Part shown: positions 8,048 to 14,712 of the stretch, one piece after another
Layout of the letters: each line of letters opens with the position of its first letter
How positions within the stretch are numbered: position 1 is the first letter of the stretch
Source: Planctomycetaceae bacterium
Lineage (GTDB): Bacteria; Planctomycetota; Planctomycetia; Planctomycetales; Planctomycetaceae
Assembly: GCA_020638955.1 (NCBI GenBank)
Contig: JACKHO010000007.1
Location: forward strand, 246,745 to 310,744
Length of the DNA stretch: 64,000 nt
Direction of reading: 5' to 3'
Program-made: the position numbers and the translations under genes
The notes under the pieces: model-generated
Seen by the model: the letters and a program-made list of their open reading frames with translations, nothing else
Told to the model about the DNA's origin: nothing
Databases searched by the model: none

Positions 8048-8238
8048 GCTTCTCACCTTGCTGAAGTGACAGAGAATCCGAGTCTGATCGTAACCAATTG
8101 ACCATGCCCCGTGCACGGACCGCCGCAAACTTTCAGAGATTCGGTGTGGGCAGACTGATTGGTTTTCCAGTACAACAACGTGCACTCCTTAACCCAAAGT
8201 CACTGTTGCAGCGACTGTGGAGGAAGTCACCGCATTGT

Positions 8239-8348
8239 GGTGGGTTACGTCCGCTTGTCGCCCATCACCGAAACTTTGCCTCCTGATCTTGTTGGATGAC
8301 TTGCCTAACGCACTTTCCGATTTGACGCGAACTTCACCCACCCTACGA
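8239..8348 (+). repeat. Copy a of repeat family R1 (about 110 bp, bounded by GGTGGGTTACGTC ... ACTTCACCCACCCTACGA).
   Basis: Shares its terminal blocks and the internal block TTGC(C/G)TAACGCAC with 43962-44072. The 5' GGTGGGT is complementary to the 3' ACCCACC. It ends 18 nt upstream of the M28 peptidase ATG. Confidence 0.6.
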
Positions 8349-9967: not shown

Positions 9968-10423
9968 TCACGACTTCGGTGGGAGGACGACGACGGTGAA
10001 GTAGAAGTTCGTAATGCCCTGGATAACGTGCAGGAACTGGTTGAAGTCGACCGGTTTGGTGGCGTAGGAGCTGCACTTGAGTTTGTACATGCTCAGTACG
10101 TCGTTCTCGTCGGAGGAGGTTGTGAGAATCATGACCGGAATTTGTTTCAGGTCGTCGTCTTTGACCAGTTCGGCAAGCACTTCCCGTCCATCCATAATGG
10201 GCATGTTCAGGTCCAGCAGAATGAGGTCCGGTGTGGGAACTTCGGAATAGCCCTCCTCCTTCCGGAGAAACTTCAGGCACTCTTCGCCGTTTTCGACGTG
10301 GTGCAGGTTCACGACGAGGCTCGATTTGTCAAAACCAATCCGGGTCAGTACGACGTCGTCTTCGTTGTCCTCGACCAGGAGAATTTCTGCTGGTCGACTG
10401 CCTCTCCCATCCATGACCTGCAT
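9968..10423 (-). CDS. Single-domain response regulator, CheY-like receiver.
   Basis: ILLVEDNEDD ... DLILLDLNMP ... the T-S-S and K-P receiver signatures. Confidence 0.85.
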   Translation of the reverse strand: MQVMDGRGSRPAEILLVEDNEDDVVLTRIGFDKSSLVVNLHHVENGEECLKFLRKEEGYSEVPTPDLILLDLNMPIMDGREVLAELVKDDDLKQIPVMILTTSSDENDVLSMYKLKCSSYATKPVDFNQFLHVIQGITNFYFTVVVLPPKS

Positions 10424-11002
10424 GCTGCCGCTCCACTGTTGTCGTTACTTAGAGGTCTCATCACTTGGAGGAAAGGGGAATTGTAAAATAGAACGTCGTT
10501 CCCTTACCGGGTTCCGATTCTAGCCAAATCCTCCCACCGTGGCGATTCACGATACGGCGGCAAACTGCCAGACCAATGCCGGTACCGGGGTACTTATCCT
10601 GGCCGTGCAGACGCCGAAAGATTTCGAAAATCTTCTCGTAATGTTTTTCGTCGATGCCAATGCCGTTGTCGCGCACCGAAATGGTCCACTCGATTCCGTT
10701 GGACTCCGCTGCAATGAAAACCTGGGGAGGGGCATCACCGTGATATTTCAGACCGTTACCAATGAGGTTCTGCAACAACTGCGACAATTGCGATTCATCT
10801 CCCATGACGGTTGGCAGTTCGCCATGCGTGACCTCGCCATCGGCGTCTCGAATTTCGGCGTACAGCAGCGTGATGACGTCATCGACGACGGCATTCAGGT
10901 TTGTCGGCTCGAACGGTCGCGACCGGGACTCGACACGTGCATAAGTCAGCAGATCATTAATCATGGCAATAATATACTTGACTCACCACACCTGTCAAGT
11001 AG

Positions 11003-11043
11003 CAATGAAACAAAACAGCCCACGCAGAGGTTTCTGCGTGGGC
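11003..11043 (-). terminator. Intrinsic terminator just inside the left inverted repeat of the IS1595 element.
   Basis: Hairpin GCCCACGCAGA-GGTT-TCTGCGTGGGC (11018-11043). On the minus strand it is followed by TGTTTTGTTTCATT. Confidence 0.5.
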
Positions 11044-11420
11044 CACACCACTAACGTGGGCGACGATTGGTTTTATTTCCCAAATACTGGGAATCGAAAC
11101 GGCTTTCCATCGCGTCGGCGAATGTACTTCCGTGCACGCCAATGCCACACGGTCCAGCACACAACCCAACGCACAATGCGCCGTTTCTTCGTTCGGACAT
11201 GAGAAGTACTCATTTCGTCCTCCGGAAAAAGGATTTGCAAAATTCCCCGGAGGAACTATTCTAGAACCTCCGGGGTGTCCAAGCACAAATGACGCTCGGT
11301 GATACTTGCGGCAGGGGAATAGCAGTCCCCTGTCGCTTTCTCTTTTCAGTATCTGGGCTCCGAGCCGACCGCCTCTATCTTCTCATGGGCACACCCTCCG
11401 TTGGTTTGTGAAAAACGGGA

Positions 11421-12047
11421 CTAAGTAGCTCGGTCAACGAATGAGTCGATGCTGCTGACTGGATTTTCACCGTCAAGCGTGCTTTCAGGAGGCTTTGTCG
11501 GTGAGAACGGGTTATTCACTGCATGCGGTGAGCCAATCGCTGTGTAACCCGCCCGCCTGGCTTTTGAGATGCGCCCTGCCTTCACAAGGTTGGAAAGGCT
11601 GGCGCTGACAGCACCGTTGAAGTTCTTGGCGTTGGAGTACACCTTTCCTGCGAGTGCCTTCGTTACTTCGGATAGCCGGAACACACGATTTGGCGCGCTG
11701 TTTATGAGTTCGGCAGCCGCCTCAAGAATTGTTGGGCGATCATCATCCGGTTGCGGTTGATCCGCGGCGGCTGGAGTAGGCGTCACATCATCAGCAGTGA
11801 GCCTGTCAAGATATTCAACTCGGCTCATGTTGGTGACTCGTTCGGCCATTCGCTCCACAGCGGAAATCTGTGCCTCAATCTCCGCCACCCGCTTCTTGGC
11901 ATCGTTCAAGTCAAATCGTAGGACCTCGACTACATCCGCAATTGTCACTGATTTCGCTTGATTTTTGTCAGACATTTCAGTACCTTGGCGCGTAAGAATA
12001 GCGTTGCCCCGCATATCGCGGCGTTTCGTTGTTCGGATTGAAGCCAC
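11421..12047 (-). CDS. Passenger gene of the IS1595 element: 208-aa hypothetical protein with a coiled-coil N-terminus and a possible winged-helix-like C-terminus.
   Basis: Lies inside the inverted repeats, downstream of the transposase and on the same strand. GGAG sits 4-7 nt upstream of the ATG at 12047. I recognise no family. Confidence 0.55.
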   Translation of the reverse strand: MASIRTTKRRDMRGNAILTRQGTEMSDKNQAKSVTIADVVEVLRFDLNDAKKRVAEIEAQISAVERMAERVTNMSRVEYLDRLTADDVTPTPAAADQPQPDDDRPTILEAAAELINSAPNRVFRLSEVTKALAGKVYSNAKNFNGAVSASLSNLVKAGRISKARRAGYTAIGSPHAVNNPFSPTKPPESTLDGENPVSSIDSFVDRAT

Positions 12048-12349
12048 TCTGGAGACGAATCTTGCCGGATTACTCCACAGTGGCTCGTTTTATAGGGTAC
12101 AACCCACAAGTACACAATCACAATCCAAAGGATTTCGGACGGATTCGGGAAATAGTTGATGCTGTGTACCACATCGTGAGTTTGCAATGCCGCCAAGACA
12201 TGCCAAAGACTCGCCTAAATCGCACCCATTTGATGCGGTTCCAGAGTTCCGGAAAGCACTTAATTGCCTAGCGAAAGTGCCAAAAAGCGAGATAGAGAAG
12301 AGGGAACAGGAACTGAAACAGCCTCGCAAGCCAGCGAGTGATTAGCTAA

Positions 12350-13315
12350 CTATCTGTTCAGTTCAACCAAATCGGTGTATGTGAGCCTATTGCCAACAAC
12401 ACCGGCCATCGCCACGTCAAAACGCTCGCCGTCCGAAAGCTTGCGTTCATTGAATCGAAAGACTTGCTCGTCAACATACCGGCACAAGTGCCACGGCATG
12501 ACGCTGATGTAAGTTCCGTTCAAGCATCGCTTTAGCAGGCTCCAGAAGTTCTCCATCCCATTGGTGTGCACATCACCACGGACATACTCCTTTGCGTGGT
12601 CAACGGTGTCGTGAAGGTATTCGTCTTCCAGCCCTTCGTAGGACCGTAGTGCGTCTGTGTAAATACTTGCACCAGCCTCCACAGAAGCCCGCACATTTGG
12701 TTGTAGCGTCTTGCGTTTGGAATCCTGGACAACGCCTGCGATGACCATACCTCCCCGCTGCAAAACCCCCTGCACAATCGTTTTGCCAACAGCTCCGCGA
12801 CCTTTGATTTTTCTGGCACGCTCGGCTTTATGCATGTTCTTCGCCTTGCCGCCAACGAAGGTTTCGTCGGCTTCTACAGTTCCAGACAGCTTTCCTGAGA
12901 AGTTGCCAGCCGACAATGCAACACGAATACGGTGAAGCATGTGCCACGCGCTCTTCTGTGTGATCCCCAGTGCCCGGCTGAGTTCGTAGCTGCTTATGCC
13001 GTTCTTGGCCGAAGTTATGCACCACACAGCCACAAACCACTTGTCGAGCCCCAACGGGCTGTCTTCAAATATTGTGCCCACTTTGTAGCTGAACTGCTTA
13101 CGGCAGCCCTTGCATCGAAGCATCTTGCGAGTTTTGATTTCGCCGATTCGCTGTCCGCCACACTTTGGGCACGCAATAGCACCGTCAGGCCATTTGATGC
13201 CCTTCATGTACTCGTTGCAGCGGTCCAGATCGGAGAAGAACCGAACAGCTTCAATCAGTGTCTTTGGTGTGGCGTCCATCGTGCTGGCTCCGGGTTTGTT
13301 CTCGGTACAGCACAA
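12350..13315 (-). CDS. IS1595-family (ISXO2-like) DDE transposase.
   Basis: N-terminal zinc ribbon CPKCGG...CKGCRKQF, then the DDE_Tnp_IS1595-like core (DETFVGG ... YTDALRSY ... HTNGMENFWSLLKR). Confidence 0.9.
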   Translation of the reverse strand: MCCTENKPGASTMDATPKTLIEAVRFFSDLDRCNEYMKGIKWPDGAIACPKCGGQRIGEIKTRKMLRCKGCRKQFSYKVGTIFEDSPLGLDKWFVAVWCITSAKNGISSYELSRALGITQKSAWHMLHRIRVALSAGNFSGKLSGTVEADETFVGGKAKNMHKAERARKIKGRGAVGKTIVQGVLQRGGMVIAGVVQDSKRKTLQPNVRASVEAGASIYTDALRSYEGLEDEYLHDTVDHAKEYVRGDVHTNGMENFWSLLKRCLNGTYISVMPWHLCRYVDEQVFRFNERKLSDGERFDVAMAGVVGNRLTYTDLVELNR

Positions 13316-14712
13316 TTCTAGCTCTACCCCATTGGTGAGTCAAGTATATTATTGCCTTAATCATGGTCTGCATACGTTTGCAGCCGTTGACAATCCGGTC
13401 GATTTGGTCGTCCGCGTTCTGGTCGAGTTTCCCCCGATAGTCCTGCTTCAGGAATTGAGCAAAACCAGCGACCGCCCGTAGCGGCGACTGCAGGTCATGC
13501 GAGGCAATGTAGGCGAACTGTTGCAGTTCCATGTTGCTCTGTTCGAGAAACTCATTCTTCTCGTGCAGTTCGCGCGTCATTTCCATGACGCGGTCATTCA
13601 GGCTGGTACTCAGTTGCTTCAGGTTCTTCGTAAAATCGGCAAGTGCCTGTTGCTCGCGCATTTCCGTGAGGACAACAAACCAAAGTGCCACGCCGTATGC
13701 CATGAGCCGCAGCAAGTGCCAGCCCCACCAGGGTAAATCCCACAACTGCGACTGCTCGAACATGACCGCCGCCGCGCCGAACAGCGAACAGTGGAGAAAG
13801 AACAGCAAGTCATCGACGTTTTTGGTCTGACGGTAGGTGGTTACCAATCGTACCGCGGCGGCAATGAGGAGTACTCCACCCACAACATTGAGACTCTTGG
13901 CCCACAGGCTGAAGACCTTCTCCCCCTGCTCGTTGACGAACAACATGCGAGGAGTTGCGCCGGGATACGCCAGTGACAGAATGCCGAACAGAAAAACGAC
14001 ACCAAATACTGCCCAAGGCCACCACGCCAATAAGCGTCGCCCCCAGCTCTTGGGCACCCAAACCATTGCAAACAGTACGCCGCCGACAAATGTCGCAGTG
14101 CTATGCAGCCAGACGAATTCCTGGCCAGCGTAGACGAGCGCATGCAGGCCATCGAGCAGCCCCATGCCAATCATGGCCCCGGCAATCCAGACGTTATAGC
14201 TCGTTCCCGCGTTCCGCCATTCCAGAGACAACAGCATCCACGCGACCCAGACGGCAATAAGTCCGCCGGACATCTCCACGGCAGCATGGACTGGATGATG
14301 TGGCCAACGCCACTCGCGCATGAGGGTATGCCCCAGAATCAGGCACACCACGTGAATAACGAGACTGACGCCAATGACCACCCACAAAGTCCGCCCCAGG
14401 CGTGGGGGAGGGCGAACGACGACATCAATCCCCAACGGCAGAGCAGCCGCCGGAAGTGGTTGCCGTTCACTGTCAGTGTGTGGCACGGAGTCGTTCATTG
14501 GAAGTGAAAGCCAACTGACGTGGTGGGCCAGTAGCCGTTCCAAGTGCCCCTCCCTGTGGGGCCGCGGAACCTGCCGCTGCATCCCCTTCGTCTGCCAGAG
14601 AACTCGAGCAAACAGATTGTTTCACAGAACCTCTCGCCATTACTGCAAAGATTCCATGAAACGCTCTGTTCCGACTTTCGCATCGAAGCGTGCTGGTGTC
14701 AAGCCCTTGCGG

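Follow-up and report, generated by a model that had tools for sequence, protein, structure and literature searches.

What does a gene that can be assigned to no family do inside a small insertion sequence? The question is raised by a 64-kb stretch of DNA (the window) from a Planctomycetaceae metagenome-assembled genome, in which an IS1595-family insertion sequence (IS) carries, beside its transposase, an open reading frame (ORF) here called the passenger. The passenger is a real gene, and the IS1595-family transporter IS that carries it as cargo is intact and was inserted recently. The protein family of the passenger is rare, yet recurs inside transposons of the IS1/IS1595 superfamily. The product is best read, with a probability of roughly 45%, as a dimeric DNA-binding regulator of the repressor type, autoregulated and acting on the cargo side of the element. 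The element is a further transporter IS, a category described since 2009, and cargo in an IS1595 element will not surprise specialists; the passenger is a member of an uncharacterised, transposon-associated winged-helix family.

The element and its passenger gene

The element spans 10965-13356 on the minus strand (2392 bp). Its ends are formed by an exact, inverted 23-bp repeat, GGCAATAATATACTTGACTCACC, at 10965-10987 and 13334-13356; the window has these 2 matches and no more, whereas shuffled sequence gives 0, and in an inverted-repeat scan the arms reach 24 bp. An 8-bp direct repeat, TTAATCAT, bounds the element at 10957-10964 and 13357-13364. The principal features are as follows.

10957-10964: target-site duplication, right-end copy (TTAATCAT); direct-repeat scan, reading of the sequence, excision result
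10965-10988: right (distal) terminal inverted repeat, GGCAATAATATACTTGACTCACC(A); inverted-repeat scan, same repeat at the ends of 54 related elements
11421-12014, minus strand: passenger gene, encoding a long helix, an acidic Pro-rich linker, a winged helix and a disordered tail; ORF list, homologues, predicted structure
12350-13279, minus strand: transposase of the IS1595 family, 309 amino acids (aa), intact; Pfam, NCBIfam, full-length alignment to relatives
13333-13356: left (transposase-proximal) terminal inverted repeat; inverted-repeat scan
13357-13364: target-site duplication, left-end copy (TTAATCAT); direct-repeat scan

The transposase matches the Pfam models DDE_Tnp_IS1595 (1.7e-40) and Zn_ribbon_IS1595 (4.3e-11) and the NCBIfam model transpos_IS1595 (1.6e-56; 191.5 bits, cut-off 75), and the NCBI records MCA8991033.1 and MCB9953108.1 name it 'IS1595 family transposase'. 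The zinc-ribbon DDE transposase, the terminal inverted repeats and the 8-bp duplication place the element in the IS1595 family, and the passenger, a gene with a VPK motif and a 46-aa ORF, all within 10989-12349, make it a transporter IS (tIS). In the literature on this category, passenger genes are described for the ISNwi1, ISPna2 and ISNha5 groups of IS1595 (Siguier, Gagnevin and Chandler 2009, via PMC11891212; 10.1101/2021.05.26.445724), and transcription regulators are listed among the passengers for ISNha5. Cargo-carrying IS are said to be confined to the IS1595 and IS66 families (TnCentral preprint, 10.1101/2021.05.26.445724). The window's element resembles the described IS1595 tIS in its zinc-ribbon DDE transposase, its repeats starting GG, its 8-bp duplication and the extra genes inside. 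It differs in its passenger, whose family is not described in the searched literature or libraries, and in the near-universal VPK-motif gene of its clade, of which the accessible literature makes no mention.

The insertion splits a sensor kinase gene (10461-10964 and 13365-14582, minus strand) between its HisKA and ATPase domains, leaving MASE3 and HisKA on the upstream piece and HATPase_c on the downstream piece (Pfam). Upon in-silico removal of the element and one copy of the duplication, the pieces join into a single 573-aa kinase ORF reading ...CKRMQTMINDLLTYARVES..., and the insertion is therefore recent and clean. Further copies in a second NCBI assembly (L089), a Logan contig (L090) and an ENA contig (L083) occupy the same site and are 99.9-100% identical; a search for copies at other sites found only this one insertion of the exact element. 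The disrupted kinase allele is present in two NCBI assemblies and in the Logan contig, the latter with its flanks preserved. A natural Planctomycetaceae population carries a two-component sensor kinase knocked out by insertion. A plasmid search returned no DNA match to the element; the closest plasmid transposase, from Methylocystis, is 44% identical, has another end sequence and is not accompanied by a VPK-motif gene.

The maximal passenger ORF lies at 11421-12047 on the minus strand, encodes 208 aa from a GTG and has the same orientation as the transposase. Gene callers place the start at ATG 12014 (197 aa; NCBI, ENA) or at ATG 11975 (184 aa; Logan, ENA), the latter preceded by AAGG 7 nucleotides (nt) upstream and coinciding with the start position of the relatives, and one of these two is the likely start. 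In NCBI the product is labelled 'hypothetical protein KDA88_03605'. An earlier reading of the letters, the sequence-only reading, had described a 2.4-kb element with 23-bp inverted repeats and, inside them, a co-oriented 208-aa ORF that would move with it; the exact repeats, the 8-bp duplication and the place of the ORF inside an intact element confirm this picture. The coding status of the ORF is backed by distant homologues and a confident fold. That IS1595 passengers had already been reported also holds, transporter IS being a named category. The proposed Shine-Dalgarno sequence is not borne out: the GGAG at 12073-12070 lies 22 nt upstream of GTG 12047, too distant for that role, and it belongs to one arm of a 12-bp inverted repeat whose other arm contains the GTG.

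A rare winged-helix family

The passenger protein matches no family in the libraries searched. In Pfam the sole matches are coiled-coil noise that does not reach the cut-off (best E 0.0016); NCBIfam gives a best E of 0.011 (16 bits, cut-off 85), PADLOC no match, PHROGs a family of unknown function at E 0.008, and a sequence-profile search against the PDB nothing significant. The earlier judgement that no family could be assigned agrees with these results, and the profile searches identify the protein as no known IS1595 accessory protein. A word-indexed search of 5.8 billion proteins yields a single 99%-identical copy, and an exhaustive HMMER (phmmer) search of 1.84 billion representatives yields 14 proteins. 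Eight of the 14 are 180-265 aa long and align on passenger residues ~95-175; E-values among the relatives run from 1.6e-9 (P0004) and 2.2e-7 (P0006) to 4.2e-4. Passenger and relatives have in common the motif GKV..SA.NF.GAV..TLS.L.K.G.I, with invariant columns at A129, N131, V136, L140, S141, L143 and Y157, and several relatives have weak matches to the MarR, DprA_WH, TrmB and ArsR models. The family comprises ~ten relatives among the 1.84 billion representatives. The matches P0002, P0003, P0005, P0008 and P0010 (E to 1e-26), the strongest of the exhaustive search apart from the near-identical copy, were rejected as compositional artefacts: they are long, repetitive, adhesin-like proteins whose scores are the sum of weak repeats, 3-14 bits each, on the linker motif P-DDDRPT.

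AlphaFold2 was run on the relatives' alignment, with residues numbered on the 197-aa form. The model consists of a helix (25-73), a low-confidence linker, a compact domain (96-160) and a disordered tail. The compact domain, with a predicted local distance difference test (pLDDT) of 91-96, follows the order helix-strand-helix-helix-hairpin, which is the topology of a winged helix. It carries a net charge of +7 and an isoelectric point of 10.7, lending indirect support to nucleic-acid binding, and the coil, linker and tail are acidic. The N-terminal helix is a probable coiled-coil dimerisation segment; fold, charge and coil together point to a dimeric DNA-binding protein. The sequence-only reading had proposed a coiled-coil N-terminus and a basic, possibly DNA-binding C-terminus. 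The fold model and charge profile support the coil and a basic domain near the C-terminal end, while the last 37 aa are acidic and predicted to be disordered, the basic part being the winged helix just before them.

The top Foldseek matches of the model are linker histones and the DNA-binding domain of Rok (5zuz), with a probability of 1.0 and E ~0.02. They raise the alternative of a nucleoid-associated silencer, an analogue of H-NS, Rok or Lsr2 that would form oligomers through its coil and cover DNA, making the element, or other foreign DNA, less costly. Rok of Bacillus subtilis and the H-NS-like silencers, often located on mobile elements, have the layout predicted here, in which a flexible linker joins an N-terminal coil to a DNA-binding domain at the C-terminus. 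The DNA-binding domain of Rok is itself a winged helix, and the linker-histone globular domains reach a template modelling score of ~0.67-0.69 on the target. However, the Foldseek E-value is weak, and searches of Pfam, NCBIfam and the PDB sequences link the protein to none of Rok, H-NS, Lsr2 and MvaT. The relatives combine two winged helices with fixed three-gene sets, unlike known silencers, and an architectural protein, which has to be abundant, would hardly come from an IS gene present in one copy; a silencer is very unlikely. The resemblance to the globular domain of linker histone H1/H5 and to the winged helix of Hop2 is one of fold only, at 7-18% identity to eukaryotic proteins of unrelated context.

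Genomic contexts were recovered for seven distant relatives (L081, L082 and L084-L088), and a metagenome scan with the relatives' alignment returned one locus. In L081, L082, L084, L085 and L087, the relative adjoins a divergent IS1-family transposase (NCBIfam transpos_IS1, 3.9e-30, above cut-off). Upstream of it, L081, L082, L084 and L085 have a ribbon-helix-helix gene of 68-70 aa, recognised by similarity, and in L087 the same position is taken by a gene for 53 aa whose Pfam match, a NikA-like one, is weak. Downstream, a Cys-rich gene of 87-114 aa follows in L082, L084, L085 and L087, replaced in L081 by an NYN-domain gene. The four-gene set of L084 (3036-6149) has at its borders 25-bp inverted repeats starting GGTACTG, as well as a duplication of 8 bp, GAAATTGG; it contains the transposase, the ribbon-helix-helix gene, the gene for the coil and double winged helix and the Cys-rich gene, and nothing else, and is therefore itself a 3.1-kb cargo-carrying IS1-family element. 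Cargo beyond the gene set varies between the IS1-type elements (NYN, PemK, a proteasome-like gene). The contig of L088 is too short for its context to be judged. As a side observation, the L084 element is a cargo-carrying IS of the IS1 family, and the TnCentral preprint lists such IS only for IS1595 and IS66.

The IS1-type proteins (P0004, P0006, P0007, P0009 and P0011-P0017) resemble the passenger in their C-terminal winged helix, N-terminal coil, similar size (180-200 aa) and location inside a transposon of the IS1/IS1595 superfamily. They differ in having a second, central winged helix (motif SHRLRK), where the passenger has a Pro/Asp linker. The window protein has one winged helix, a 37-aa tail and an IS1595 rather than an IS1 transposase as its neighbour. 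A tblastn search of the window's element finds no relative of the ribbon-helix-helix or Cys-rich genes, and the element also lacks the ~470-bp conserved spacer of the IS1-type loci.

That spacer lies between the ribbon-helix-helix gene and the coil/winged-helix gene (L084 4431-4903; also L081, L082, L085, L087 and L088) and is 75-90% identical in DNA, against 41-74% for the flanking proteins. Its first ~95 nt fold into a closed structure of several stems, in which some of the changes are compensatory. When read on the strand of the transposase, it looks like a degenerate tRNA with a long arm (GGAGAG acceptor, loop CUUAUAA, T-arm GGGTTCGAGTCCC in L081); neither ARAGORN nor Rfam makes a call there. 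In the window's element, too, Rfam gives no match and ARAGORN no tRNA.

No close relative of the passenger is present in the 80 sister IS1595 elements considered below. A distant one is found in an IS1595 element from Bryobacterales (L077), as a 155-aa protein with a short coil, an acidic linker, a single winged helix and a tail (BLASTP E 6e-6 to the passenger; profile comparison E 1.5e-4). Its gene directly follows the VPK-motif gene of that element and is itself followed by a hairpin and a gene for a 48-aa hydrophobic peptide with a strong ribosome site.

This relative bears on the possibility that the passenger is a functionless hitch-hiker, a piece that recombination took from the three-gene set of the IS1-type elements and that is now decaying. 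Such a fragment could lack the central winged helix and both partner genes, as the passenger does, and the extreme rarity of the family, with its ~ten relatives in 1.84 billion, and the single known insertion of the element are in keeping with it. Yet the ORF is intact, and its winged helix retains the invariant residues of the family at pLDDT >90. L077, from another phylum, independently has the same shortened architecture, which argues for a functional single-domain form and makes decay highly improbable.

Leader of the passenger and a candidate operator

Three signals flank the passenger gene.

12043-12084 (arms 12043-12054 and 12073-12084): 12-bp inverted repeat, GCCACTCTGGAG-N18-CTCCACAGTGGC, in the passenger leader; 0 and 1 mismatch
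12089-12117, minus strand: weak promoter-like site, TTGTGT-17-TATAAA, 5' of the passenger; by eye, 8/12 of the consensus
11245-11275, minus strand: hairpin CCCCGGAGG...CCTCCGGGG with a T-rich stretch after it, in the interval that separates the passenger from the 46-aa ORF; inverted-repeat scan

The passenger and the VPK-motif gene are divergent, with a 139-bp region between them. Simple co-transcription of the passenger with the transposase is unlikely because this convergent gene sits between the two. The hairpin at 11245-11275 is a possible terminator of the passenger, although the terminator scan did not flag it. The leader repeat, which begins shortly after the weak promoter-like site, is a candidate operator or 5' hairpin. 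If the passenger is an autoregulated repressor, it would dimerise through its predicted N-terminal helix, and the dimer would use the 12-bp inverted repeat of the passenger leader as its operator. Binding in the divergent region would then set the expression of the passenger and of its neighbours, which may include the downstream gene for the 46-aa peptide.

Several points weigh against such a regulator. Dimerisation, DNA binding, the operator and the regulatory target are inferred, whereas the analysis shows the anatomy of the element, the fold, the rare family and the recurrent linkage of that family to IS1 and IS1595 transposases. An RNA hairpin or coincidence would account for the leader repeat just as well: the repeat forms the main stem of an RNA fold whose whole-region z-score is -1.2, and its half-sites occur 10 times in the window against 5.7 expected, which is within chance. 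The promoter-like site is weak and falls below the threshold of the consensus scan. The fold matches of the passenger are generic, and winged helices also mediate protein-protein contacts. The relatives have a central winged helix, a ribbon-helix-helix gene upstream and a Cys-rich gene downstream, all of which the passenger is without, so that it may play a different role. Near the relative in L086 there are a C5 methylase and Vsr but no transposase. The defence and toxin-antitoxin cargo of the sister elements favours another reading, set out below.

Sister elements, their cargo and the small genes

The scan of one genome per species gave 511 relatives of the transposase, of which the best 80 were examined (L001-L080, 53-78% identity); in 54 of the 80, both ends were located with the window's repeat. 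Perfect 8-bp duplications are found in 43 of these 54 delimited sisters. All 54 are 1656-4604 bp long and none has the ~1-kb length of a plain IS, so that cargo is the rule in this clade. The sequence-only reading had treated 2.4 kb as an oddity; the element is indeed larger than a plain IS of ~1 kb, but its size is the norm among these relatives. At least 54 always-loaded IS1595-type elements are thereby found in Planctomycetota, Acidobacteriota and other phyla. With respect to a possible assignment to the ISNwi1 group, whose end consensus in ISfinder is ggnnatTAT, the window's end, GGCAATAAT, agrees at 8/9 positions and many sister ends (GGCAATTAT, GGTAATTAT) at 9/9. Plasmid annotations give only 'IS1595 family transposase', without a subgroup.

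The sisters bear most directly on whether the passenger could be an accessory factor of transposition that binds the element ends or target DNA, in the manner of IS1 InsA or the Tn7-type accessory proteins. InsA of IS1 corresponds to the N-terminal portion of the transposase frame, and its binding sites are the terminal repeats. It resembles the passenger as a small, element-encoded DNA-binding protein of the IS1/IS1595 superfamily that could control the expression of its own element; the passenger differs in being a separate, unrelated gene, with no site for it found at the ends. Genes of the family belong to the conserved backbone of IS1-family elements, the other cargo of which varies, the L084 element holds only the transposase, the ribbon-helix-helix protein, the passenger relative and the Cys-rich protein, and two IS1595 elements, the window's and L077, contain the family as well. 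However, ~52/54 delimited sisters have no relative of the passenger, yet most have perfect target duplications, so this transposase does not need the protein in order to transpose. The terminal repeats and the sequence next to them contain none of the half-sites of the leader repeat. An accessory role is distinctly unlikely, and we retain the repressor-type regulator as the preferred reading.

Cargo differs between the sister elements, and what is recognisable in L001-L080 is mostly defence or toxin-antitoxin. It includes a HipA-like kinase, HEPN, SocA/Panacea, DUF3800, AIPR and GmrSD with HNH, together with an N6/N4 methylase fused to an Mrr-type nuclease and an Eco57I/MmeI-type enzyme (type IIG restriction-modification); example loci are L052 6033-7679, L061 2028-3800, L065 5103-6728 and L004 3285-6128. 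These IS1595 elements of 2-4.6 kb look like carriers of single-gene immune systems, and with much of the cargo being defence or toxin-antitoxin, very small transposons may therefore spread immune genes. In one contig (CBDDCF010000027.1), two copies of one element ~50 kb apart (L050 and L053) have swapped duplication halves, CTAACATA/CAAATGAG in one copy and CAAATGAG/CTAACATA in the other, the signature of inversion by recombination between the copies.

Two small, likely genes of the window's element, at 12187-12345 (plus strand) and 11073-11213 (minus strand), were overlooked by the sequence-only reading. The latter and its surroundings comprise the following.

11073-11213, minus strand: small ORF, 46 aa, net charge +14, Trp-rich hydrophobic core; GGAGG 5 nt before the ATG, tblastn relative in L015
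11015-11046, minus strand: intrinsic-terminator-like hairpin followed by TTTGTTT, after the 46-aa ORF; scan, 14 pairs, 8 G-C
11308-11345, plus strand: terminator-like hairpin with a T-run, on the strand opposite the 46-aa ORF; scan, 11 pairs, 8 G-C

The hairpin at 11046-11015 stands directly before the far inverted repeat. The relative in L015, a 44-aa ORF (8090-8203; tblastn E 3e-10, 55% identity, no detectable DNA similarity), occupies the same place before the right repeat and has its own hairpin and T-run, the ORF and its terminator together being listed at 8078-8262. The 46-aa ORF has no family match in PADLOC, Pfam, NCBIfam or PHROGs; its product might be a small toxic or regulatory peptide. 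The plus-strand hairpin would end a transcript antisense to it, possibly a cis-antisense RNA, for which no promoter was identified.

The peptide and the sister cargo together suggest another role for the passenger, as one half of an addiction or defence module that would stabilise the element or protect the host, with the winged-helix protein as repressor, antitoxin or sensor and the cationic, Trp-rich 46-aa peptide as toxic effector. The HipA-like, HEPN, SocA/Panacea, AIPR, GmrSD-HNH, Mrr-fused methylase and type IIG cargo of the sisters is consistent with this, as are the GGAGG 5 nt before the ATG of the peptide, its net charge of +14 and the opposite-strand terminator, which could end an antisense RNA over its gene; in L077, too, a hairpin, a strong ribosome site and a gene for a 48-aa hydrophobic peptide come after the passenger analogue. 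Nevertheless, the passenger and the 46-aa ORF lie 207 bp apart and have two hairpins between them, unlike genes of one operon, and the peptide relative in L015 has no such protein upstream. Neither gene is matched in PADLOC, Pfam or NCBIfam, and the peptides of L077 and the window are unrelated in sequence. The adjacent operon genes and at least one known family that define a type II toxin-antitoxin pair are absent here. A role in addiction or defence is unlikely, and an autoregulated repressor remains our preferred account of the passenger.

The other small gene is listed here.

12187-12345, plus strand: VPK-motif gene, 52 aa, F-x9-VPK-x-E with a Lys/Arg tail; profile matches, codon-position entropy

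It points toward the transposase gene and away from the passenger. Its profile matches 74/80 related loci, and in 54/54 delimited sisters the gene is present as a single copy inside the element, 50-60 aa long across the relatives, in either orientation and located either directly behind the transposase or directly ahead of the far repeat. Mean codon-position entropy over 62 distinct sequences is 1.47/1.22/1.77; at the invariant residues (F, VPK, E), positions 1 and 2 have near-zero and position 3 near-maximal entropy, a pattern that marks a protein-coding gene under selection. It looks like the second core gene of this IS1595 clade. The protein has no match in the family libraries searched, including NCBIfam, or among solved structures, and this second conserved gene is not described in the searched literature and libraries. 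The stop codons of the transposase and the VPK-motif gene are convergent and 4 bp apart (12346-12349), with no terminator between them, and each transcript must therefore continue antisense into the other gene. The same tight layout is seen in ~16 sister elements, and transcriptional interference with the transposase is possible.

In a broader and rather doubtful picture, the coil and winged-helix proteins would be an exchangeable component of IS1/IS1595 transposons that controls cargo expression or transposition, and the clade would be a small multi-gene transposon with a universal VPK gene, ferrying single-gene defence systems. What transposon-borne regulators do for their transposon is testable with a protein of 184-197 aa and an element of 2.4 kb.

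Two promoter-like sites overlap the ends of the element.

13315-13343, minus strand: promoter-like site TTGACT-17-TAGAAT, 5' of the transposase, with its -35 inside the left repeat; consensus scan 10/12, prediction
10971-10998, minus strand: outward promoter-like site TTGACA-16-TATATT across the right repeat, toward the kinase 3' fragment; consensus scan 11/12, prediction

At the right end, the junction with the duplicated TTAATCAT creates an ATG that opens the HATPase_c fragment (10461-10964), and a response-regulator gene (9968-10423) is next after this fragment. The strong outward promoter-like site of the element may lead to expression of the truncated kinase and its regulator.

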